Assembly (NCBI GenBank): GCA_964522695.1
Contig: CAZFWX010000002.1
Location: 1-60,585, forward strand
Length of the DNA stretch: 60,585 nt
Source of the DNA: an uncultured Desulfobacterales bacterium
Lineage (GTDB): Bacteria; Desulfobacterota; Desulfobaccia; Desulfobaccales; 0-14-0-80-60-11
Reading direction: 5' to 3'
Made by a program: the position numbers and the translations under genes. Below the pieces are notes generated by a model that saw only the letters and a program-made list of their open reading frames with translations, did no database searches and was not told the DNA's origin. Within the stretch, counting starts at the first letter, position 1. Every line of letters starts with the position of its first letter. Positions 3,736-45,394 of the stretch are shown piece after piece.

Positions 3736-4023
3736 GTGACTCTGCAAGACAAACCCGTGGCCAATCCCCTGGTGGTATTGCGCAAGGAGTTCGATGATTG
3801 GGCCGTGCTCTTTGACCCTGACACCGGCCATGCCTACGGCCTCAACCCGGTCAGCGTCCTGATCTGGCAGTTCCTGGACGGCCGGCACACCGTGGAGGAT
3901 ATCGTCCGGGAGGTCCAGGCCGCATGTGAGGACGTGCCCGAAGCCGCGGCAGAGCATGTGCAGGCATTCATCGCCGACCTGCTGAAAAACGGCCTGGCGG
4001 GTTATGACTACCAGCCCAAGTGA
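3736..4023 (+). CDS. PqqD-family peptide chaperone (RiPP recognition element); ScmD-like
   Basis: 95 aa. WAVLFDPDTGHAYGLNPVSVLIWQFLDGRHTVEDIV...FIADLLKNGL fits the PqqD pattern. GTG start with AGGAG 8 nt upstream. It overlaps the next gene by 20 nt. Confidence 0.85.
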   Translation: MTLQDKPVANPLVVLRKEFDDWAVLFDPDTGHAYGLNPVSVLIWQFLDGRHTVEDIVREVQAACEDVPEAAAEHVQAFIADLLKNGLAGYDYQPK

Positions 4024-5134
4024 TACCCCCCTCAAGGTGATGCAATCACCCCGTTCGGTGGAGGTGGCCATCACCACCCGCTGCAATCTGCGCTGCGCTT
4101 ACTGCTCCCACTTCACCTCCGCCGCGGATGTGGCCCATGATCTTCCCACCGGAGAGTGGCTCCAGTTCTTTGCGGACCTGGGGCGCCGGGCGGTGATGGA
4201 GGTGACCCTGGAAGGGGGCGAGCCCCTGTTGCGCCGGGATTTGCCCCAGCTCATCGACGGCATCGTCAAGAACCGCATGCGCTTCACCATCCTGACCAAC
4301 GGCACGCTCATCACCGAGGACCTGGCCGTGTTCTTGGCCGGGACCCGGCGCTGCAACCAAGTGCAGGTCTCCCTGGACGGCTCCATGCCTGAGACCCACG
4401 ACGTCTGCCGGGGCGAGGGGACCTTTCACCGGGCGTTAAACGGCATCCGCATCCTGCAACGCCACGGCGTGTCCGTCTCCGTGCGGGTGACCATTCACCG
4501 CCACAACGTGCGGGACCTGGCGGGGGTGGCCCGGCTGCTCCTGGAAGAATTGGGCCTGCCCGGATTCTCCACCAACGCGGCCTCCTTCATGGGAATGTGC
4601 CGTTCCCAGGCCGACAGGGTGCAACTCACCGTGGAGGACCGGTCTTTAGCCATGGAGACTCTCTGGGAGCTGAATCAGCAATACGGCGGCCGCATCACCG
4701 GGTCCGCCGGGCCGGTGGCGGAGGTCTATGACTGGCTCCAGATGGAGGCGGCCCGGCAGGAGGGCCGGGAACCCATGGAGGGCCGGGGGGTCCTGGTGGC
4801 CTGCGGCGGCGTCATGAGCAAGCTGGCGGTGCGGGCCGACGGCGTGCTGACCCCGTGCATGCAACTGTGCCATCTGGAACTGGGGCGCATCAACCAGGAC
4901 GACCTGGGCGAGGTCTGGGTGCACCATCCCCAACTCACCCGGCTGCGCCAGCGGAACACCATGGCCTTGAGCGACTTCCCATTCTGTCAGGGCTGTCCCT
5001 ATATCCCTTATTGCACCGGCAACTGTCCGGCTTTGGCCTACACCATGGCGGGTGAGGAGAATCATCCCGCGCCGGACGCCTGCCTCAAGCGCTTTCTGGA
5101 AGCAGGAGGGCGTCTGCCTGATGTCCCCATCTGA
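4004..5134 (+). CDS. Radical SAM/SPASM domain maturase (ScmE/ScmF-type), first copy
   Basis: CNLRCAYC (CxxxCxxC) near the N-terminus and a C-terminal Cys-rich SPASM region (CGGV...TPC...FCQGCPYIPYCTGNCP). Confidence 0.9.
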   Translation: MTTSPSDTPLKVMQSPRSVEVAITTRCNLRCAYCSHFTSAADVAHDLPTGEWLQFFADLGRRAVMEVTLEGGEPLLRRDLPQLIDGIVKNRMRFTILTNGTLITEDLAVFLAGTRRCNQVQVSLDGSMPETHDVCRGEGTFHRALNGIRILQRHGVSVSVRVTIHRHNVRDLAGVARLLLEELGLPGFSTNAASFMGMCRSQADRVQLTVEDRSLAMETLWELNQQYGGRITGSAGPVAEVYDWLQMEAARQEGREPMEGRGVLVACGGVMSKLAVRADGVLTPCMQLCHLELGRINQDDLGEVWVHHPQLTRLRQRNTMALSDFPFCQGCPYIPYCTGNCPALAYTMAGEENHPAPDACLKRFLEAGGRLPDVPI

Positions 5135-6242
5135 GAAATCCCCGGTCCTTTATCCCCTGACCAACATCTATTTTTTCCTGACCGCGGGATGCAACCTGCG
5201 CTGCCGCCACTGCTGGTTTGTTCCCGAAACTCAAGAGGCTCCCCAGACCCGGGGCGGGGTGGAGTTTGACCTCTTCGAGCACATCATCAGGCAGGCCACG
5301 GCCATGGGGGTGGGCGGGGTCAAGCTCACCGGGGGGGAGCCCCTTTTGCACCCCCGCATCAAAAACATCCTGGAGTTGCTCCTGGAAGAGAACCTGGGGC
5401 TCATGTTGGAAACCAACGGCATCCTGCTGACCCCGGAGTTGGCCCGGCTCCTGGCCCGTTTTCCCAGCGTGCAGGTGTCCGTCAGCCTGGACAGCCCCGA
5501 AGCCGGGGTGCACGAGTGGGTGCGGGGCCGGCCGGGCTGCTTTGCCGAGACCCTCAAGGGCATGGCCCACCTGGCGGAGGCCGGCGTGCCCTTCCAGGTC
5601 ATCATGACCCTCATGCGCCGGAACCGGGAGCAGATGGAGGCCATCATTCCCTTCGCGCGCCAGCAGGGCGCGGGCCTGGTGAAATTCAACATCGTCCAGC
5701 CCTTGTCCCGGGGAGAGCAGCTTTACGCCAGTGATGAGGCCCTGAGCGTGCCGGAACTGGTGGAACTGGGGCGCTGGGTGGAAGGGGACCTCTCCCGCGG
5801 CGCAGAGTTGCCTGTCCTTTTTCACCATCCTCCAGCCTTCCAGCCCTTGTCCCGGATGATCCGGGATAACAGCCTGGATTGCCACAGGTGCGGCATCCTG
5901 GGCATTATCGGGGTGCTCCCCAATGGCGCCTGGGCCCTGTGCGGCCTGTCCGAGGAGGTGCCTGAACTTGTCTTCGGCCACGCCGCCCGCGACCGGCTGG
6001 ACGAGGTCTGGCACGAAACCCCCCTGCTGCGGGAATTGCGCCAGGGCCTGCCTCACCGCCTGGAAGGGGTGTGCCATGACTGCCTCCATCAGGCCGTCTG
6101 CCAGGGAAGCTGCATCGCCCAGAATTACATCACGACCAGGAGCCTCTGGGCGCCTTTCTGGTATTGCCGGCAGGCCGAGGAGCTGGGCCTCTTTCCCCCC
6201 TCCCGGAAACGGCAGGCCATAACCTCCTTCGCCCGCGGGTGA
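5121..6242 (+). CDS. Radical SAM/SPASM domain maturase (ScmE/ScmF-type), second copy
   Basis: CNLRCRHC motif and a SPASM-type C-terminus (CGILG...ALCGL...CHDCLHQAVCQGSC). I moved the start to ATG 5121, which overlaps the upstream stop by 14 nt. The track start at 5052 would add a 23-aa out-of-family extension. Confidence 0.9.
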   Translation: MSPSEKSPVLYPLTNIYFFLTAGCNLRCRHCWFVPETQEAPQTRGGVEFDLFEHIIRQATAMGVGGVKLTGGEPLLHPRIKNILELLLEENLGLMLETNGILLTPELARLLARFPSVQVSVSLDSPEAGVHEWVRGRPGCFAETLKGMAHLAEAGVPFQVIMTLMRRNREQMEAIIPFARQQGAGLVKFNIVQPLSRGEQLYASDEALSVPELVELGRWVEGDLSRGAELPVLFHHPPAFQPLSRMIRDNSLDCHRCGILGIIGVLPNGAWALCGLSEEVPELVFGHAARDRLDEVWHETPLLRELRQGLPHRLEGVCHDCLHQAVCQGSCIAQNYITTRSLWAPFWYCRQAEELGLFPPSRKRQAITSFARG

Positions 6243-6327
6243 AGAAAATTTAGCTGAGGTCAGGCCCGACAAACCACAATCTTTTTTCCATATTCTCAAT
6301 TTCCGTATGGAAAAGAGAATAATTCTC

Positions 6328-6357
6328 TTGCATTATAAGAATGACTTTCCCTATAAT
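6328..6357 (+). promoter_or_regulatory. Near-consensus sigma-70 promoter inside the cassette, upstream of the small precursor-like ORF
   Basis: TTGCAT (6328-6333), an 18-nt spacer, then TATAAT (6352-6357), in an AT-rich island between GC-rich genes. Confidence 0.45.
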
Positions 6358-6472
6358 CAGGGCTTAATGTGGTATCCCTGCGGCATGTGTGACCGCGGTT
6401 TGGTCACTCTGCCCCCGTTAGCTGCAAGGGAGATTTTGGTTTCTGCGATCTACCATGTTGGAGGGGAATGGT

Positions 6473-6610
6473 ATGAAGGAAAAGAAAAAGCTGCCTTATG
6501 AAAAGCCCATCTTGACCCGTCTGGATGCACCGGCGGCCGCAGGCTTTCGCAGTTGCGGCGCCGGGTCCGTAGCGAACCTTTGCCCCCGGGGTGCGGTGGT
6601 CAACAGGTAG
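6473..6610 (+). CDS. Candidate RiPP precursor peptide (45 aa), not in the ORF track
   Basis: The ATG 6473..TAG 6610 ORF translates to MKEKKKLPYEKPILTRLDAPAAAGFRSCGAGSVANLCPRGAVVNR. GGAGG (6460-6464) lies 8 nt upstream. It sits between the second rSAM/SPASM gene and the ScmC-like gene on the same strand. The layout is leader-like then core-like, with 2 Cys. Confidence 0.5.
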   Translation: MKEKKKLPYEKPILTRLDAPAAAGFRSCGAGSVANLCPRGAVVNR

Positions 6611-6658
6611 GAAAATTAACCCCAGGGTGTCCCGAACGAGACAAAATTCCTGTTGGGG

Positions 6659-6693
6659 GGGGAGGCTGTGTCCTCCCCTCTGCCGTTATTTTT
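6659..6693 (+). terminator. Hairpin plus T-rich tract just after the precursor-like ORF (possible leaky terminator/attenuator)
   Basis: GGGGAGG (6659-6665) pairs with CCTCCCC (6672-6678) around a 6-nt loop. The T-run TTATTTTT at 6686-6693 is not directly adjacent to the stem, so this is weaker than a canonical terminator. Confidence 0.3.
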
Positions 6694-6780
6694 CGTGAAC
6701 TCATTTCGCTGCTCTCCGGACCGTATCGCTTTTTCCTTGCCCCACCCCTTCCTGGCCTGCCCAGCCTGCGAGGCCCGCAC

Positions 6781-7737
6781 ATGAACCCTCCCGCCGGACC
6801 ATCCGTGCGGCTGCGGGACCTCCTCCAGGATGGCTGTAATGGCGGTGACGCCTCAATTCCGGATCAGGGCTTCTGCCTTGACCTCGCCGACGGCAACCGC
6901 TGGTGGCTTACAGCCTGCACTCCCACCTTCCCCTGGCTGACGCGGCTGGCGGCCATTATGGAACTGCCCCCTGGTTTGCCTGACGGCCGCCCGGAACTGA
7001 TCTACACCGAAGCCTTGCCGGCCCGGGATTTGGCCGCGTTGGGCTTTGTCCCGGAAGAAGTGGGCTGGGGGCCGAAAGGCCAGCGGCCTTTGCGCTGCTG
7101 GCGCCACCCCGGTCTGCCGGACGTGCTTTGCGAATTGCACCATGACGGGAGCGCAGAATTCTTTCTGATCAACATGTGGAACTCCCTCACTGTCATCTAC
7201 CTGGACAGCGTGTGGCGGGGCGGCCTGCCTCTCCACGCCGGCCTGGCGGCTTTTCAAGGCCAGGGCGTGCTCTTCGCGGCGCCGGGGGATACGGGCAAAT
7301 CCACCACCTGCCGCCGTCTGCCGCGGCCCTGGGAGATGCTGGACGACGATGAAACCCTGGTGGTGAAAACCCCTGGGGCCTTCTACGTGGCTCACCCCTT
7401 CCCCACCTGGTCCGACTATCTCTTCCAAAGGGGGATGCCTACCTGGAATGTGCAGCATACTGTGCCGGTCAAGGCCGTCTGCTTTCTGGAGCAGCATCCC
7501 GAAAACAGAATTACGCCCCTGAGCCAAGCCCAGGCTGCGGTGTGCATCACCCAATCAGTGGAGCAGATTTGCACCAGGACCTGGGAGAATCTCCCCCGGG
7601 AAGAGATGGTCCGCCGCCGGACGCAAGTCTTCGCCAACGCCGCGGACCTGGCCCTGGCCGTGCCGGCTTTCCGGATGCGCCTCAGTCTGCACGGCCACTT
7701 TTGGGAAGACCTGGAGCGCCTCCTGGGCTGGCGGTGA
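6781..7737 (+). CDS. ScmC-like conserved cassette protein with a P-loop (HprK-type kinase-like core?)
   Basis: 318 aa from ATG 6781, with GAGG 9 nt upstream. The Walker-A-like GDTGKST is at 7285-7305. The track start at 6553 (TTG) would overlap the precursor-like ORF. Confidence 0.7.
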   Translation: MNPPAGPSVRLRDLLQDGCNGGDASIPDQGFCLDLADGNRWWLTACTPTFPWLTRLAAIMELPPGLPDGRPELIYTEALPARDLAALGFVPEEVGWGPKGQRPLRCWRHPGLPDVLCELHHDGSAEFFLINMWNSLTVIYLDSVWRGGLPLHAGLAAFQGQGVLFAAPGDTGKSTTCRRLPRPWEMLDDDETLVVKTPGAFYVAHPFPTWSDYLFQRGMPTWNVQHTVPVKAVCFLEQHPENRITPLSQAQAAVCITQSVEQICTRTWENLPREEMVRRRTQVFANAADLALAVPAFRMRLSLHGHFWEDLERLLGWR

Positions 7738-23667: not shown

Positions 23668-24942
23668 TTAGCTGAACCGCCGGTAACAGCAGCGGGCGCA
23701 GCCGGGAAAAAGGCCCTGGGCCACCAGCCGCCGCAGGTTCAGATACCCGGGGCTGTTCCAGATCTCCTGCAGGGAGGTGTCGGTAATTTTGCCCATAACC
23801 ATGTGGAGGCAGGGCGAAACCGTGCCGTCCGGCAGAATGCGGCAGGCCATCCACAGGTGCCGGCATTCCTGGGGAAAGGGATGATCGATGTCCAGATAAT
23901 ACGGCCCCAGGTTTTCATCGGGGAGATCCGGGGAAAAGCCCAGTTGCACCCGGCCCTGGTCCCGGCGACGCACCGCGGCCAGGCTCTCCAACAGACGCGG
24001 CAGGTCCCCGGGGCCGATTTCGCTTTGGTAGAACCCCCCCTCCGGGATGGAGGGCGCCACCACGTTCAAACCCTGGGTTGCGGGGTTTTCCGGGGACAGG
24101 ATGCGGTTGTGCCGCTGTACGTTTTCCATGGTGTTGAAGATGGTATGGGAGAAAAACAGCATGTCCGCGCCCAATTCCAGGGCCAGAGGCACCATTTCCT
24201 CCAGGCGGTCCAGGTTGTCTTTGGAAACGGTGCAGCGCAGACACAGAAGCGGGCCGGGGCTGCCCCGGCGGCGCCGGGCCTCGGCCAGGGCCTGAAAGCC
24301 GGCCACGGAGCGGCGAAAGCTGCCCTTGATGCCGCGGATATAGTCGTGCAACTCCTGGGGGCCGTCAATGGACATGGTCACCATGTGCACGCCTAAAGAG
24401 ACCAGATCGTCGGCCACCTGGGACAGCAGGATGCCGTTGGTCTGCAAGTGGATCATGAGGCGGCGCTGCCGGGCCGCCTCCAGCAGTTCCAGGGCCTGGG
24501 GATACACCAGGGGTTCGCCGCCGGTGAGATACAAAAGGGGCCGCCAGGAACCCACCTTCCCCAGGAGCTTTGACCACAGGGGCAAAGGCGGCCAGTTGGG
24601 GCCGGGCTGGGTGAGGCGCCAGCCGGCCAATTCGTCCAGCAGTTTGACCCAGGCCTGAAGCGGCAGTTCCTGATTGACGTCATACCAGTTCAGCTCCGGA
24701 GGGACCTCCACGTCCCGGCGGAACTGAAAGCACATGCGGCAGGCCAGGTTACAGCGGCGGGTGGGGTTGATGCTGATCAGGGCCGGCAGGACGCTGCCGC
24801 CGGCCGGGTGGAGGCGCCGGTCCCGGGCGCCGCCCCAGCGCCGCCGGTATTCATAGCGAAAATAAGTGGGGACAATGGCGGGATCTTGCCGGGCCATTCC
24901 CATTAAGCGGGAATAGACGCCGGCAGTGCTGCTTATGGACAT
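23668..24942 (-). CDS. Radical SAM/SPASM domain protein inside the glycan cluster
   Basis: 424 aa with CNLACRMC (CxxxCxxC) and a C-terminal CRILPDGTVSPC...FPGCARCC SPASM-like cluster. GGAGG lies upstream. Confidence 0.85.
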   Translation of the reverse strand: MSISSTAGVYSRLMGMARQDPAIVPTYFRYEYRRRWGGARDRRLHPAGGSVLPALISINPTRRCNLACRMCFQFRRDVEVPPELNWYDVNQELPLQAWVKLLDELAGWRLTQPGPNWPPLPLWSKLLGKVGSWRPLLYLTGGEPLVYPQALELLEAARQRRLMIHLQTNGILLSQVADDLVSLGVHMVTMSIDGPQELHDYIRGIKGSFRRSVAGFQALAEARRRRGSPGPLLCLRCTVSKDNLDRLEEMVPLALELGADMLFFSHTIFNTMENVQRHNRILSPENPATQGLNVVAPSIPEGGFYQSEIGPGDLPRLLESLAAVRRRDQGRVQLGFSPDLPDENLGPYYLDIDHPFPQECRHLWMACRILPDGTVSPCLHMVMGKITDTSLQEIWNSPGYLNLRRLVAQGLFPGCARCCYRRFS

Positions 24943-25128
24943 GGATGTGGGTTTCCTCCTTCGCCCTAGGGGGGACGGGTTTCACGGCCCGGGCCTTGGC
25001 CGGACGCCCTCGGAGGCTCCAGGCGGCCCATGACCATGGGTAAACCTTACCACATTCAGATGCATCTGGGAAGCTGGACAGGCAGGCCTCAGGCGCGGCC
25101 TGCGCCTGCCAAGCTTTTTCAGCAGCAA

Positions 25129-26079
25129 TCAGGGGGTGGGGGGTAAGGGACACGAACCTCCGCCAGCCTGGCCCTGGGAGAGAGATCGTTTCATGAGGTT
25201 GGAGCCGGAGACGATTTTCTGGAGTTTGGCCCGGGCCGGGGGGGACAGCCCCAAATTCGGCAAATCGGCCTGAAAGGACTCCAGGGAGCCGTGCCCGGCC
25301 AGGTAGCCGTTGACCCGGGCCGCGGCAGTGGAATTGACCAGGTCTGCAGGCGCGGGATAAAGGAGCGCGAATTCCCGCCAGAGTTCCGGAACCTGACGAA
25401 GATAATATTTCTGGTGATAGTCCTCGGCCAGATAGAACGTGGATGCGGGCAGGATTTCCGTGAAAACCTTGCTCTTCAGGCGGGCCGCAACCCGTTCCCG
25501 GGATTCCAGCGCCAGTCGCCTTTGCTCTTCATTGTGGTAAAAAACCGCCGCCTTGTATTGCTGGGACCAGGCCTGACGGCCGGGTTGATGACCCTGCCAG
25601 AAAACCGCCAGCAATTGGGCGTAGGCAATCCTCTGGGGATCAAAGTCGATCTGCACCGTTTCGGTGTGATCTCCCAGGCGGTGATAGGTGGGATGGGGAG
25701 CGGCGCCCCCCGTGTATCCCACACGGGTGCGCAAAACGCCAGGCAAGGCCCCGAACTGGGCCTCAGGACCCCAAAATCACCCCAACGCGAAGGTGGCGGT
25801 TTCCACCTGAGCCGGAATCTGCAAATCTAGAGGCGGTATGGGAAGCTGACCACCCGGTTTGTCGGGGGTTTGGGTCATGATCATTCTCCCTGGGCGAGCG
25901 GGCGGGGGGGCGCCGGTTTTATTGTGAACAATTGTGCACAATATGGAAGTTAGGGTCAAGAGAAAGAGAACCGTCAGGGCGGTAAAGTGTTGGGAGGTCA
26001 TCCCAGGAATGGTATTTTTCCTTAATTTCATGGCGGCGATGCGAACGGTCATGAGCTTATGGAAACGTAGCCTTGACAT
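25129..26079 (-). CDS. msrA: Selenocysteine-containing peptide methionine sulfoxide reductase MsrA with an N-terminal hydrophobic anchor (in-frame TGA at 25777-25779 read as Sec); start uncertain
   Basis: Track ORFs 25777..26079 and 25129..25746 are in the same frame and join as ...ETATFALG-TGA-FWGPEAQFGALPGVLRTRVGYTGG... The MsrA active site is GCFWG, so the TGA replaces the catalytic Cys. The N-terminus has FTALTVLFLLTLTSILCTIV. Confidence 0.75.
25744..25765 (-). promoter_or_regulatory. Candidate bacterial SECIS hairpin downstream of the msrA UGA
   Basis: The mRNA reads UGA-UUUUGGGGUCC-UGAGGCCC-AGUUCG-GGGCCUUG. The 7-8 bp stem (core GGCCC/GGGCC) starts 14 nt after the UGA, and the 6-nt loop has G at position 2. 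Confidence 0.4.
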
Positions 26080-26244
26080 CAGGTTCAGTTCTTAGGCTCT
26101 GAATAAAATAATTGTAAATAATTATATATAAAATAAATAAGAAAAGAAGCCGCTTCTTGCCAGTGGGGACTGAAAAATATTTTCGAATAAAATAGTCCCC
26201 CTTTCCTCGGATTTTGGCTGGGGGAAAAATCTCTGAAAGCCTGC

Positions 26245-26850
26245 TCAGAACCCGCTGATGGTTGGTTCCTCTCCCAGGGCCAGGCGGCGAAGGTTTGCCA
26301 GGTGGCAGTAGAGCAGGAGACCGGAGAGCAGGCCCGCCAGCATGAGGTAGGGTTTGGGCTCGGTGAACAGGCCCACGGCCAGGGGCAAAAGCCAGGCGCA
26401 CGCCAGGGAGCTTACCGAAAAGATGCGGGTGCGGGCCAGGACGGCCAGGTAAACGATGGCCAGGTTTAGGGCTGCCCAGGGGGCGACGACAGCCACCACG
26501 CCGAAGGTGGTGGCCACGCCCTTGCCGCCGCGGAACTTGAGGAAAACAGGAAAGATGTGGCCCAGGACCGGGGCGGCGGCCACCGCGGCCACCCCGGTGT
26601 CGTGCCAGGTGCCGGGGGGGACCAGCCACAGCCAGGCGGCCAGCACAGGAACCGCACCTTTGACCGCGTCCCCGGCCAGGGTGAGGAGCCCGGCCCCGGG
26701 ACCCAAAAGACGGTACAGGTTGGCCGCCCCCAAATTGCCGCTGCCCGAGGTGCGGGGGTCGGGGCCGTGCAGCAGGCGGGCCACCAGAAGCCCGGTGGGC
26801 AGGGAGCCCAACAGGTAAGCAATCAGCAGCAGCACGAAAAACCCGGTCAT
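26245..26850 (-). CDS. plsY: Glycerol-3-phosphate acyltransferase PlsY
   Basis: 201 aa. YLLGSLPTGLLVARL...SGNLGAANL...GHIFPVFLKFRGGKGVAT are canonical PlsY motifs. Confidence 0.9.
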   Translation of the reverse strand: MTGFFVLLLIAYLLGSLPTGLLVARLLHGPDPRTSGSGNLGAANLYRLLGPGAGLLTLAGDAVKGAVPVLAAWLWLVPPGTWHDTGVAAVAAAPVLGHIFPVFLKFRGGKGVATTFGVVAVVAPWAALNLAIVYLAVLARTRIFSVSSLACAWLLPLAVGLFTEPKPYLMLAGLLSGLLLYCHLANLRRLALGEEPTISGF

Positions 26851-31373: not shown

Positions 31374-33404
31374 CTAAATTCGGGAAAAAATCCGCACGTC
31401 CACCGCGAAGAGGCCCTTGTCATAGAGGAGCAGAGGATTAATTTCGATCTGGTCCAGTTCCGGGTGACGCTCGGCGAAGCGGCACAGGGCCTGCATGGCC
31501 ATTTTCAGGGCCGCCAGGTCGAACTTGGGGCCGCCCCGGTAGCCGGTGAGGAGCGGATAGCCCTTGATGCCCCGGATGAGCCGGTCCAATTCCTCGTCGT
31601 CCGGGGGGATGAAGCAGAAGCCCACATCCCGGTAGAGTTCGGTGTAGATGCCGCCCAGGCCGAACATCAGGACCGGGCCGTACTGGGGATCGGTGATGGT
31701 CCCCAGGATCAGTTCCAGGCCTCCCGGCTTGGCCATGGGGGAGACGGTGACGCCATCCACCCGGGCGTCCCGTTCCTTAAGACGCACGGAGGCCATGATC
31801 TCCTGGTAGGCCTGGCGCACTTCTTCATTGTTCATCAGGAAAAGCTGCACCCCGCCCGCGTCGCTTTTGTGGGGCAGATCCGGGGAAGCGACTTTCAGGG
31901 CCACGGGGAAGCCGAACTCCCCGGCCAGCTTGACGGCCTCTTCGGCATCCGCTGCCAAGGGCGCGGCCGCGGCGGGAATGCCTGCCTCGCTGAGCATGAG
32001 AGCAGCTTCGGCCGCGGGCAGCAGGCGCAGGCCCGGGACGGGCGCCGGGGCCATGGCCTCGGGGCGGAAGGGGGGCGCGGGCTCAAAACGGAGGAACTGG
32101 GCCAGGGCCCGCACCCCCCGCTCGGGGGTGGGAAAGACGGGCACGCCCTGGGCATAAAGTTTTTGCCGTTCTTCCTGCTCCACGTCAGCGCCGCCCAGAA
32201 AGATGACCAGTTCTTTGCCGCCAACCGTAACCTGGGCGGCGGCTTCGGGGATGGGATCGCCGAAGATCACCACCTGGTAGTCGTATTCCCGGGAGGTTTC
32301 GTCCATCACCTGCCGGTAGAGCTGGGGGGCGCTGATGGCGTCGCCGGTGAGGTCGATGGGGTTGCCCACGGCGCAGTGGGCCGGCAGCATTTCCTGGAGC
32401 CTTTTCTTAAGGGAGGGATTGGGAGGCGGGACCTCCAGGCCGTGCTTTTCCGCCTCGTCAATGGCCAGGATGGCCGCGCCCCCCGATGAGGTGGTGATCA
32501 TCAGGCGGCGGCCCCGGGGTTTGGGAAGATAGGCCAGGGCCTTGGCGAAGTCGAAGAGTTCCTCCAAAGTGTCGGCCCGGTATACTTTGTATTTGCGGAA
32601 GAGGGTGTCATAGATGGCGTCCGCGCCCGCCAGGGATTTGGTGTGGGATTCGGCAGCCTTGCTCCCCTGCACCGTGCGCCCGGCCTTAAGAATGACAATG
32701 GGCTTTTCGGCCTCGCGCAGGGCGTCCAGAAAATAGGTGGGGCGCTTCACCCCTTCCAGATACAGGGCGAGGACCTGGGTGTGAGGGTCGGCATTGAAAT
32801 ACTGGATGACCTCGGCTTCGTCCACGTCCACCCGGTTGCCCAGGGAGACGAAGGCGCTGACCCCCAGGCCTTCGGCCGCGGCCAGATCCAGGAAGGCCGC
32901 GCCCACAGTGCCGCTCTGGGAAGCGAAGGCGATCTTGCCTTTGGTGGTGATGAGCGGCCAGGAGGCGCACATGAGGTGGTGCGGATTGTTCACGCCCTGG
33001 CAGTTGGGGCCGATGACCCTGATCCCCGTGCGCCGGATCACCTGGGCCATTTCATCTTGCAGCCGCTGGCCGTCCTCGCCTGCTTCGGCGAAGCCGCCGG
33101 TGATGACGATGGCGGCCTTGACCCCGGCCGCGGCGCATTGCTCCAGGGTGGAGGTGACGATCTTGGCGGGGATGACCACCACCGCCAAGTCCGCCGGGGT
33201 GGGCGTGTCGGCGATGGATTTAATGACCTTGAGCCCCAGGATTTCGTCGGCCTTGGGGTTGATGGGGTAGAGTTCCCCGGCGAAGCCGCCGTTTTTCAGG
33301 TTGGCTAAAATATCGTGCCCCAGTTTCCCGGGCACGGTGGAGGCGCCGATGACGGCCACGCTATTGGGGCGAAAGATGGGTTCCAGGGTGGCGAGAGTAT
33401 CCAT
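31374..33404 (-). CDS. ADP-forming acetyl/acyl-CoA synthetase (fused alpha-beta; CoA-binding + succinyl-CoA-synthetase-like + ATP-grasp)
   Basis: 676 aa. SVAVIGAS..PGKLGHDIL, GPNCQG, SQSGT and a C-terminal ATP-grasp domain. GAGGAGG RBS. Confidence 0.9.
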   Translation of the reverse strand: MDTLATLEPIFRPNSVAVIGASTVPGKLGHDILANLKNGGFAGELYPINPKADEILGLKVIKSIADTPTPADLAVVVIPAKIVTSTLEQCAAAGVKAAIVITGGFAEAGEDGQRLQDEMAQVIRRTGIRVIGPNCQGVNNPHHLMCASWPLITTKGKIAFASQSGTVGAAFLDLAAAEGLGVSAFVSLGNRVDVDEAEVIQYFNADPHTQVLALYLEGVKRPTYFLDALREAEKPIVILKAGRTVQGSKAAESHTKSLAGADAIYDTLFRKYKVYRADTLEELFDFAKALAYLPKPRGRRLMITTSSGGAAILAIDEAEKHGLEVPPPNPSLKKRLQEMLPAHCAVGNPIDLTGDAISAPQLYRQVMDETSREYDYQVVIFGDPIPEAAAQVTVGGKELVIFLGGADVEQEERQKLYAQGVPVFPTPERGVRALAQFLRFEPAPPFRPEAMAPAPVPGLRLLPAAEAALMLSEAGIPAAAAPLAADAEEAVKLAGEFGFPVALKVASPDLPHKSDAGGVQLFLMNNEEVRQAYQEIMASVRLKERDARVDGVTVSPMAKPGGLELILGTITDPQYGPVLMFGLGGIYTELYRDVGFCFIPPDDEELDRLIRGIKGYPLLTGYRGGPKFDLAALKMAMQALCRFAERHPELDQIEINPLLLYDKGLFAVDVRIFSRI

Positions 33405-42997: not shown

Positions 42998-43276
42998 GGG
43001 CTTTGGTCAACTCCCTCTTGACTTTAGGGTGATACCTTTTACACTCTATCCGGCGGGTGTCATTGCCGGGGGGAGGCGCTCCCTGAACCCGGAACTGCAG
43101 CGCGGCCGCGCCGGGATGAGGCTTTGCACTACTGTGGGCTGCACCTCTGGCCTCATCTATTGTGCCATATTTCCTCCCCGTTTCTCAACCCGCTCAGTTC
43201 AGTGCCGGTTTGCTGCACCTGCCCATGTCCCGCAGGAAACGCGGCGTCAAATCTTCGGCCGGAGATCGCCCTACCC

Positions 43277-45394
43277 ATGCGAAAATTTTTTTATCCCGAA
43301 AGTATCGCCGTCATCGGCGTTTCCGAGAACCCCAACAACCTGGCCCGGGGCATTGTGGACAACACCATCAGGGCCGGGTATCAGGGCAAGATTTTCCCCG
43401 TGGGCCCCCGTCGGGGCTTCACCCACGGCCTGACCATTTTTTCCCATATCCGCGAACTCCCCGAACCCGTGGACCTGGCGGTGATTCTCACGCCGGCCCG
43501 TTTCGTGCCCCAGGTGGTGGCGGACTGTGGCGACCTGGGGATTAAGCGGGTGGTGGTGGAATCGGGGGGCTTTTCGGAACTGGGGGAGCACGGCAGGGCC
43601 CTGGAGCAGGAGGTCCACGATCTGGTGCGCCGGTACGGCCTGCGCCTGGTGGGTCCCAACGGCCTGGGGGTCATCAACATGGAGGTGGGGCTGGCCCTGC
43701 CCTTTGCCCACATGCCCGGTTTTCCCCGCCCCGGAGGCATTTCCGTGATCGCCCAGAGTGGTGGGGTGGGCATGCACGTCATTGCCTGGATGGCCAAGGA
43801 AGGTCTAGGCCTGAACAAATTTCTGAGCCTGGGCAACAAACTGGACGTGGCGGAGAACGAGGCCCTGGCCTATTTTCTCCAGGACCCCGGCACCCAGGCA
43901 GTCTATATCTACTTGGAGGGTTTGGACAACGGCCGGGAACTCATGGCCATCGCCCAAAAGTCGCAGAAACCCGTATTTGTGCAGCTTCCCAACGTGGGAC
44001 CGGAAACCTCGGCCATCGCCTGGTCCCACACCGCCTCTTTGGCTTCGGATGAGCGGGTCATCGAGGCGGCCTGTCGGCAGGCGGGCATGCTGCGCGTCAA
44101 AAGCCAGGCCGAATTCCTGGTGGCTGCCAAACTGGTGGGGCAGCCGCCCGTGAGGGGCAACAAGGTGGTGATTCTCTCCCGCAGCGGCGGCGAAGCGGTC
44201 ATAGCCGCGTATGCCTGTTCCCAGTGGGGCTTCAAGCTGCCGCCCCTGGCCCCGCCTCTGGCCGACCTGATTCACAAGCGCTCGCGCTCGCAAATTATCA
44301 AGCCCACCAACCCCATTGACCTAGGTGACATCTTTGATTTTTCCGTCTATTCCGAGGTCATGGCGGCCCTGTGCGCCGACCCCGAGGTGGACGCGGTGGT
44401 CCTAAATTACGGGCCGGTCTATGATCCGGAGCGCCAGGCCGCCCGGGATATGGCCAAGGTGTTCATCGACCTGGCCCGCCAGGCGGAAAAGCCCCTGGCC
44501 GTCAGCATCTGCTCCAGCCTGGAAGAAGAGGCGTATTTCCGCGACCAGTTGGGCGTCCCGGTTTTCCACTTTCCCGGGGAAGCCGTCCGGGCCCTGGCCT
44601 ACAACCGCACCTGGTCCCGGCGGCCGGAACTCATGATGGGCCGGAAGCTGCCCCGCTTTAACCTGGACAAGGTGGCCCAGCTCCTCACCGATGCCCCCAG
44701 CGGTTTTTTGAGCCTGCCCGCGGCCCTTTCCCTGCTGCCCCTGTTGGGCATTCCGGTGCCCGGCTGGAAGATGGCCGGCAGCCAGGAGGAAGCCCTGGAA
44801 GCAGCGGCCGATCTGGGCTATCCCGTCTGTCTCAAGCTGTCTGCACCTTCCCTGATTCACAAAACCGAGGTGGGCGGGGTGCAGTTAAATCTTCAGAACC
44901 CCCAGGACTTAGCCGCTGCGTATGCCCGTTTGGAAGCCGTTGTCCGGGATCATCTGCCCCTGGGGGAAGAGTGGGAAGCGGTGGTGATGTCCCAAGTGCT
45001 GGAAGGGGAGGAGGTCATTGTGGGGTCCCGGCGGGATGAGGTCTTTGGGCCCGTGGTGGCCTTCGGGGCCGGAGGCATCTGGACCGAAGTCATGGAGGAC
45101 GTGGCCCTGCGGGTGGCCCCGCTCAATACTGACGAGACCCGGCGCCAGATCCTGGAAACCAGGATGGGCCGCATCCTTCAGGGCGTGCGGGGCAAACCCG
45201 CGGCGGACCTGGACGCCTTGAGCAACGCCCTGTGCGCTCTGTCCCAGCTGATGGTCACTTTCCCGCAGATCCAGGAGGTGGATCTGAACCCGGTGCGGGC
45301 CTTTCTGGGCAGCCGGGGTATTTTGGCCCTGGATGCCCGGGTTCGGGTGGGGGAGGCGGGCGGCGAAATCCAGGAAATCCCGGCAGAAGGGTAG
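43277..45394 (+). CDS. ADP-forming acetyl/acyl-CoA synthetase, second paralogue
   Basis: 705 aa from ATG 43277. SIAVIGVS..NLARGIV, GPNGLG, AQSGG and a C-terminal ATP-grasp domain. Same architecture as 31374..33404. Confidence 0.9.
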   Translation: MRKFFYPESIAVIGVSENPNNLARGIVDNTIRAGYQGKIFPVGPRRGFTHGLTIFSHIRELPEPVDLAVILTPARFVPQVVADCGDLGIKRVVVESGGFSELGEHGRALEQEVHDLVRRYGLRLVGPNGLGVINMEVGLALPFAHMPGFPRPGGISVIAQSGGVGMHVIAWMAKEGLGLNKFLSLGNKLDVAENEALAYFLQDPGTQAVYIYLEGLDNGRELMAIAQKSQKPVFVQLPNVGPETSAIAWSHTASLASDERVIEAACRQAGMLRVKSQAEFLVAAKLVGQPPVRGNKVVILSRSGGEAVIAAYACSQWGFKLPPLAPPLADLIHKRSRSQIIKPTNPIDLGDIFDFSVYSEVMAALCADPEVDAVVLNYGPVYDPERQAARDMAKVFIDLARQAEKPLAVSICSSLEEEAYFRDQLGVPVFHFPGEAVRALAYNRTWSRRPELMMGRKLPRFNLDKVAQLLTDAPSGFLSLPAALSLLPLLGIPVPGWKMAGSQEEALEAAADLGYPVCLKLSAPSLIHKTEVGGVQLNLQNPQDLAAAYARLEAVVRDHLPLGEEWEAVVMSQVLEGEEVIVGSRRDEVFGPVVAFGAGGIWTEVMEDVALRVAPLNTDETRRQILETRMGRILQGVRGKPAADLDALSNALCALSQLMVTFPQIQEVDLNPVRAFLGSRGILALDARVRVGEAGGEIQEIPAEG

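Follow-up and report, generated by a model that had tools for sequence, protein, structure and literature searches.

The DNA examined here is a stretch of 60,585 nucleotides from contig CAZFWX010000002.1 (the window, taken at its full length), which harbors on its minus strand a gene for a methionine sulfoxide reductase A (MsrA) with a TGA at the catalytic codon, read here as selenocysteine (Sec). Positions 25129-26079 form a single minus-strand frame of 316 codons, in which the only internal stop is the TGA at 25777-25779; the translation around it runs ...AQVETATFALG*FWGPEAQFGALPGVLRTRVGYTGG... The list of open reading frames (ORFs) gives two entries for this region, 25777..26079 (ATG start, 100 residues) and 25129..25746 (TTG start, 205 residues), both on the minus strand and in frame with each other (26079-25746 = 333 = 3x111). 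The TGA falls on the site of the nucleophilic Cys of MsrA (…ETATFALG-U-FWGPEAQFG…), and the active-site peptide reads …VETATFALG-U-FWGPEAQFGALPGVLR. The original prediction was of a Sec-containing MsrA split in two by the ORF list, with an in-frame TGA at the position of the catalytic Cys, two ORFs sharing one frame, and a hydrophobic segment, a Pro-rich linker and a C-terminal GGSCP in the joined protein. Translation bears out the frame, the stop and the three sequence features, and the enzyme assignment itself is supported by domain, structural, comparative and selenocysteine insertion sequence (SECIS) evidence. The features of the gene are the following:

25129-26031, minus strand: msrA, long form, from the ATG at 26029-26031 (M17 of the ORF as originally predicted) to the stop TGA at 25129-25131; 300 codons including Sec.
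25777-25779, minus strand: predicted Sec codon TGA (GUFWG), aligned to Cys16 (native Sec16) of C. oremlandii MsrA; TGA in 75 of 79 loci.
25744-25765, minus strand: SECIS-like hairpin, core stem 25758-25764 with 25745-25751, apical loop AGUUCG at 25752-25757, GUU at 25754-25756.
25393-25800, minus strand: MsrA catalytic domain (PF01625, PMSR), above the Pfam and TIGR00401 cut-offs; Glu55 equivalent present, YHQKY conserved.
25219-25392, minus strand: C-terminal helical domain of the selenoprotein-type MsrA, with the PF20939 match at 25243-25341; aligned to 4LWJ residues 145-202.
25132-25218, minus strand: C-terminal tail of about 30 residues ending GGSCPLPPTP, with the sole Cys after the Sec codon at 25150-25152.
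25927-25986, minus strand: hydrophobic segment FTALTVLFLLTLTSILCTIV, predicted signal-anchor or transmembrane helix of the long form; 17-residue Kyte-Doolittle mean 2.46.
25876-25890, minus strand: internal ribosome binding site GGGAGA (25885-25890) and ATG (25876-25878, M68), 33 codons ahead of Sec, where a cytoplasmic form of 249 residues is predicted to start.

The joined protein, searched with Cys substituted for the stop, matches PF01625 (PMSR) over profile positions 1-147 of 153 (E = 2.2e-42, 145 bits, cut-off 23.7) and TIGR00401 msrA (E = 8.7e-38, 130 bits, cut-off 108.1). It also matches PF20939, which Pfam names "Selenoprotein MsrA helical domain" (E = 4.9e-07, 29.9 bits, cut-off 23.7). 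The nearest solved relative is 4LWJ, the U16C form of the C. oremlandii enzyme (CoMsrA), which aligns across both domains with 43% identity (E = 2e-56). This alignment places the TGA on residue 16 and the Glu of HTE on CoMsrA Glu55, and the E-D-Y-H-Q-K-Y residues are conserved or invariant in the family alignment. The fold comparison relies on an AlphaFold 2 model of a homologue rather than of the window protein: the Cys-type family member P0030, 52% identical and modeled with a predicted local distance difference test score (pLDDT) of 91, superposes on 4LWJ with a template modeling (TM) score of 0.90 over 202 columns. CoMsrA is a selenoprotein in its native state, in which its activity exceeds that of the Cys form 20-fold; it lacks a resolving Cys, and glutaredoxin recycles it (PMC4479559). 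The GUFWG motif has been published for Sec-MsrA (PMC13188914), and Sec-MsrA enzymes carrying it are counted among the experimentally verified bacterial selenoproteins in recent reviews (PMC13188914, PMC9312934). The gene is a further member of this known, experimentally founded selenoprotein family.

Relatives of the gene were collected by a family scan with one genome per GTDB species, giving 80 related loci in addition to L001 (a 99%-identical contig) and L002 (an orthologue from another sample); the catalytic codon is readable in 79. The alignment to Cys- and Sec-type MsrA sequences called for by the original prediction puts the TGA in the column of the catalytic Cys or Sec, where TGA occurs in 75 of the 79 loci and TGC or TGT in 4. 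Among the loci with TGA are genomes named Desulfobacterota, Nitrospirota, Chloroflexota, Planctomycetota, Actinomycetes and Desulforamulus; at least six phyla are represented. Both L001 and L002 keep the same TGA, and its recurrence across the loci far exceeds what chance would give. Between the window gene and L002 the ratio of nonsynonymous to synonymous substitution rates (dN/dS) downstream of the TGA is 0.175, and the called C-terminal fragment of L002 (P0002) is 86% identical. Gene callers split the relatives as they do the window gene, P0001 and P0002 being 197-residue fragments that begin past the active site. Among the best 120 matches in the protein database, 85 are Cys-type, 10 begin just past the site and 24 carry a 'W' at it. 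These 24 could be taken to favor a TGA that is a sequencing or assembly error for TGC or TGT, or one that is decoded as Trp or Cys through an alternative code or read-through. However, the same TGA recurs in the independent samples of L001 and L002 and in 73 further genome loci, and the two 'W' entries checked at the DNA level (L083:422-1198 and L084:851-1810) both have TGA, so the 'W' calls are gene-calling artefacts. TGA is moreover a normal stop in the window, where it ends many Pfam-supported genes, plsY, moeA, dxs and msrA itself among them; a code 4 or 25 reading (TGA as Trp) is therefore excluded. A Trp in place of the nucleophile would also be inactive under the established MsrA mechanism (PMC4479559). 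The chance that the TGA is an error or an ordinary amino acid codon is negligible, and the reading of the joined ORFs as a Sec-MsrA is strongly supported by these comparisons.

Some database entries deserve separate mention. The 'W' entries fall among P0004-P0118, and at least one of them, P0006, in addition reads through the true TGA stop, acquiring a spurious 40-residue tail. P0024 (NCBI, 922 kb contig) has Ser at the catalytic position (FALGSFWEPD), which marks either a paralogue without activity or a quirk of the annotation or sequence.

Directly past the UGA the RNA runs UUUUGGGGUCCU-GAGGCCC-AGUUCG-GGGCCUU, in which a stem of 7-8 bp begins 12 nucleotides past the UGA; the loop G stands at +24, counted from the U of UGA, followed by U at +25 and +26. 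In the window gene the local hairpin has a free energy of -13.0 kcal/mol, compared with -7.0 for synonymous-codon resamples (p = 0.012), and against the synonymous-codon null the 73 Sec loci give a mean z of -2.9, with p <= 0.05 in 82%. Codon choice is the clearest SECIS signal: codon +7 after Sec is G-ending in 72 of the 73 Sec loci (CGG 41, CAG 24, AGG 5) and, together with the next Phe codon, places GUU at +24 to +26 in 70, whereas in 53 of 85 Cys-type homologues the codon +7 position is occupied by Leu, Ile, Lys, Met or Phe. The SECIS of E. coli fdhF, which reportedly presents G23 and U24 in its loop, has a similar geometry: in both cases the hairpin lies about 11-12 nucleotides past the UGA within the coding sequence and exposes an apical-loop G/U near +23/+24, and the bulged stem is found in some members of the Sec-MsrA family as well. 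In contrast to fdhF, the sequence is unrelated, two pairing registers defeat a single consensus structure and there is no Rfam match, a scan of 24800-26400 giving chance-level matches only.

Two further observations concern this region. L044 and L062, TGC-type loci in metagenome-assembled genomes (MAGs) of Dehalococcoidales, have a stable hairpin at the SECIS position with CUU rather than GUU in the loop; such hairpins may have been left over from a switch of Sec to Cys in the recent past. Over the 33 codons that separate the internal ATG from the UGA (25780-25878), the synonymous rate (dS) against L002 is 0.085, compared with 0.77 for the N-terminal extension and 0.42 for the remainder of the gene; this is a hint that the nucleotides ahead of the Sec codon are under constraint, the comparison resting on two sequences only.

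The C-terminal tail sets the protein apart from the characterized enzyme. The window protein has one tail Cys after Sec and so departs from the 1-Cys type of CoMsrA; as far as its sequence goes, it is a subtype of the C. oremlandii enzyme, not a copy. Tails with an x-C-P motif occur in 27 of 74 Sec-type genome loci, and among the protein matches a C-terminal Cys(-Pro) tail is present in 16 of 34 Sec-type vs 12 of 85 Cys-type sequences (Fisher p = 3e-4). The tail Cys is a plausible candidate for a resolving residue that would form a selenenylsulfide. No description of a Sec-associated Cys-Pro tail was found in the searchable literature.

At the other end of the protein, the ATG at 26079 that had been taken as the ORF start is not conserved in L002, whereas L002 keeps those at 26031 and 26001; translation of the long form probably begins at 26031 (or else at 26001) rather than at 26079. 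From 26031 to the internal Met, the window gene and L002 share 59% identity with no indel or stop and a dN/dS of 0.40, and the hydrophobic segment is kept in L002 through conservative substitutions; the N-terminal extension is therefore coding. The earlier suggestion was that the protein may be membrane-anchored or extracytoplasmic. The accompanying remark that such an arrangement would be unusual for a selenoprotein MsrA does not hold, because in 59 of 76 Sec-type loci the in-frame extension is strongly hydrophobic, and about 80% of the Sec-type relatives have an extension of the hydrophobic, lipobox or twin-arginine kind. Across the family loci the upstream extension has a median open length of 63 codons when read in frame 0, compared with 18 and 30 in the other frames, and a strongly hydrophobic segment occurs in 72% of in-frame extensions vs 0% in the other frames. 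By heuristic rules, a lipobox-like motif is present in 20 of the 76 Sec-type loci, and in 15 a hydrophobic stretch comes after an RR motif, about 8 of these RR motifs being clean twin-arginine signals (SRRxFLK). The window protein itself has no canonical lipobox or RR motif.

The internal ATG at 25876-25878 is preceded, 6 nucleotides ahead, by GGGAGA, whose predicted duplex with the anti-Shine-Dalgarno (SD) sequence (-8.0 kcal/mol) is typical of good starts in the window. An in-frame ATG lies 29 to 37 codons ahead of the catalytic codon in 53 of the 79 loci, and exactly 33 codons ahead in 24. The mean SD energy of these conserved internal ATGs is -7.9 kcal/mol, vs -3.1 for in-frame ATGs in gene bodies (p = 2e-20), and values of -7 or below are reached by 66% of the former vs 4% of the latter. 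From locus to locus the purine run codes for different residues (KERNN, PGR, QQRGT, KEEK…) but stays SD-like, which points to nucleotide-level selection. Most of the loci with the internal ATG also have the in-frame upstream extension with its hydrophobic, lipobox or twin-arginine features. Taken together, these patterns suggest that the gene yields two isoforms, a long one that is anchored or exported and a short one that stays in the cytoplasm.

Within the coding region of the membrane segment, about 50 nucleotides upstream of the internal ATG, there is a sigma-70-like site (TTGACC-17-CACAAT, 25931-25959, minus strand). Both hexamers are unchanged in L002, and one such match is expected by chance in the stretch; the short form could be transcribed from this site as an internal promoter.

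Each isoform might instead be the only one made. If translation began solely at the ATG at 25878, the product would be the short cytoplasmic enzyme and the upstream hydrophobic ORF would be poorly translated or a decaying remnant. This would fit the presence of an SD at that ATG only (-8.0 kcal/mol, the four upstream ATGs all being at or above -0.4), the conserved position of the internal ATG across the family, the faster evolution of the extension (59% identity, dN/dS 0.40) and the promoter-like site inside it. However, the extension is open in frame, still hydrophobic and below a dN/dS of 1 against L002, the family extensions combine their frame-0 length bias with frame-specific hydrophobic, lipobox or twin-arginine features, and about 40-50% of the genes in this genome are also without a strong SD. 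A short form alone is possible but unlikely. Conversely, only the long anchored or exported form might be produced, the internal SD-like run and Met then having a role in coding or pausing; most family members have a signal-bearing extension, and exported MsrA enzymes are known (Neisseria PilB, H. influenzae MsrAB). The constancy of the SD-like run over varying residues and the excess of strong SD energies at the internal ATGs argue against this view, as do L038, L048 and L060, which begin near the internal-ATG position and leave no room for an extension; a long form alone is doubtful. Extended to the whole helical-domain MsrA family, the two-isoform reading would be that a single selenoprotein gene may give a long form, whose signal-anchor, lipoprotein or twin-arginine signal would bring Sec-dependent methionine sulfoxide repair to the membrane or past it, and a short form with its own SD and ATG; the Cys-Pro tail would let the exported form recycle through an extracytoplasmic thiol reductant. 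This broader proposal is tentative.

The family also includes several variants of the N-terminal region and of gene organization. L017 and L023 are two Sec-type copies on the same contig (CAVZNY010000007.1), about 130 kb apart and identical in their active-site peptides; one has an RR-type signal extension, and in the other the upstream frame is closed by a stop at -47 codons and an ATG start is not obvious. This second copy may be a short-form gene in its own right or a duplicate in decay. In L013 an MsrB (SelR) domain is fused upstream of the Sec-MsrA, and in L034 and L037 an HMA-like domain replaces the signal. In 11 loci (e.g., L043:6798-7877) the next gene downstream is a second MsrA gene, a Cys-type MsrA-MsrB fusion that has a hydrophobic N-terminus of its own.

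The locus as a whole is very likely explained by a single Sec-msrA of the C. oremlandii type with hairpin-directed recoding, a tail Cys and two starts. In the proposed mechanism, the UGA at 25777-25779 would be recoded to Sec, the hairpin 12 nucleotides downstream, with GUU in its apical loop, recruiting SelB-Sec-tRNA(Sec). By homology, Sec would attack the sulfoxide to give a selenenic acid with release of Met; the single C-terminal Cys (…GGSCP) probably resolves this intermediate as a selenenylsulfide, which a thiol reductant would then reduce. Initiation at the upstream ATG (26031 or 26001) would add the hydrophobic signal-anchor, and the SD-preceded ATG at 25878 would give a soluble cytoplasmic enzyme, as its family-wide conservation suggests.

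A number of observations weigh against this explanation. Pfam searches do not find selA, selB or selD among 30 proteins of the 60 kb window, a tRNA scan of the same window returns tRNA-Val only and no tRNA-Sec, and the window holds no credible second TGA-split gene or selenoprotein gene. The Sec decoding capacity of the host is inferred, as a plausibility at the level of its lineage. No thiol-reductant partner gene lies near msrA, and neither grx nor trx is adjacent to it among the window proteins classified by Pfam. The hairpin is missed by some approaches: the minimum free energy (MFE) of the whole 71-nucleotide region, which is GC-rich, is no better than that of dinucleotide shuffles (z = 0.10), and RNAalifold on the 73 Sec loci returned an implausible consensus (-1.9 kcal/mol) instead, because the family has at least two pairing registers, set by the encoded residues. 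Two of the four Cys-type loci keep the hairpin, so that the Cys-type negative control is weak (n=4). As to the long form, its candidate ATGs lack an SD, and the Lys and Arg residues flanking the hydrophobic segment are balanced (2 vs 3; 0 vs 3 in L002), leaving its orientation ambiguous.

The pairing registers track the peptides D-S-R-F-G-S or D/E-A-Q-F-G-A. When the majority register is specified by hand, 77% of cells are paired, above shuffled and slid controls, and covariation is only modest. Under synonymous resampling the MFE of 45 nucleotides gives a weak signal (mean z = -1.1) because alternative folds dominate. With regard to the lineage, Dxs is 79-83% identical to proteins from Deltaproteobacteria, Thermodesulfobacteriota and Desulfobaccales MAGs, and on this basis the host belongs to the Desulfobacterota and resembles Desulfobaccales; Deltaproteobacteria are reported to be rich in selenoproteins (PMC9312934).

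The lack of Sec machinery in the window, along with the splitting of the gene by gene callers in P0001 and P0002 as well, would also be compatible with a TGA that is a genuine stop, leaving a pseudogene or a short N-terminal peptide, perhaps with a separately initiated fragment that has no nucleophile. Against this stand the conservation of frame and sequence on both sides of the TGA in 75 loci, the low dN/dS downstream of it, and the hairpin and GUU codon-choice constraint that directly follow it. In addition, the downstream fragment alone would be without the catalytic residue, and the orthologous C. oremlandii enzyme is a proven selenoprotein (PMC4479559). Termination at this codon is thus a very improbable account, and recoding of the UGA to Sec in a single msrA remains the preferred one.

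The closest characterized system, CoMsrA of Clostridium (Alkaliphilus) oremlandii OhILAs (PDB 4LWJ-4LWM, 4U66), shares with the window protein the Sec in G-U-F-W-G, the order of a PMSR domain followed by a helical domain, and the Glu equivalent to Glu55. CoMsrA is a cytoplasmic protein of 209 residues with zero Cys, of the 1-Cys type, which uses glutaredoxin but not thioredoxin and has dimer-mediated catalysis (PMC4479559). In contrast, the window protein has an N-terminal extension of about 50 residues with the hydrophobic segment, a conserved IPPxD segment ahead of the catalytic domain, and a C-terminal tail of about 30 residues with a single Cys-Pro. An N-terminal signal or anchor that places the Msr outside the cytoplasm, as may be the case here, is found in Neisseria PilB (MsrA/B), Haemophilus influenzae MsrAB and Streptococcus pneumoniae MsrAB2. 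Unlike the window protein, these are Cys enzymes fused to MsrB, PilB having a Trx-like domain as well, and they are supplied with electrons by DsbD or CcdA-Etrx; the window protein has no MsrB or Trx domain, and no gene for an electron-supply partner lies nearby. Two forms of gonococcal MsrA/B have been proposed, one full-length and exported, the other truncated and cytoplasmic; the proposal was later disputed, the truncated form having been reported as inactive and then not reproduced (PMC6372556). The flexible C-terminal tail Cys, predicted to be resolving here, has its counterpart in the tail cysteines of E. coli and bovine MsrA, and a tail resolving Cys is known to attack the oxidized catalytic residue (PMC4479559). 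The window protein differs from those enzymes in its Sec nucleophile, in a tail that lies past an extra helical domain, and in the x-C-P motif.

In practical terms the outcome is a routine re-annotation, in which the two ORFs are merged and the TGA is marked as Sec. The helical-domain Sec-MsrA family has a wide distribution, with at least 73 species-level genomes and no fewer than six phyla represented, and is commonly mis-annotated in databases, its entries being split, truncated or given a 'W' at the active site. The searchable literature yielded no description of an exported or dual-start bacterial Sec-MsrA; the enzyme type is known, but the combination of a membrane or export segment with an internal start appears to be new. 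If both forms are made, this would be a bacterial case of dual localization of a selenoenzyme from one gene. If the long form is exported, it raises the question by what route anaerobes could reduce a selenenic acid or selenenylsulfide beyond their cytoplasm.

The gene lies downstream of plsY and is followed by a radical-SAM/SPASM gene and a Wzy_C gene, with an azoreductase-like flavoprotein gene also nearby in the window. Neighborhood clustering across the 79 loci gave no recurrent redox partner, the top clusters being antisense shadows of msrA. The intergenic DNA that separates plsY from msrA is AT-rich, and comparison with L002 shows good conservation for one element alone, the block TTTATATATAAT. 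This stretch holds one further feature:

26121-26126, minus strand: TATAAT, putative -10 element of the msrA promoter.

The consensus promoter scanner did not call this TATAAT, there being no -35 match; it is probably the -10 element of the msrA promoter.

Elsewhere in the window, positions 4004-7737 (plus strand) carry a SynChlorMet cassette with the radical-SAM/SPASM proteins ScmE (598 bits) and ScmF (501 bits) and with ScmC (253 bits), all above the NCBIfam cut-offs, followed by an S26-like peptidase gene and an ABC/AMP-binding fusion gene. Two paralogous genes of the ADP-forming acyl-CoA synthetase type (CoA_binding, Succ_CoA_lig and ATP-grasp_5) occur within 12 kb, at 31374-33404 on the minus strand and 43124-45394 on the plus strand.

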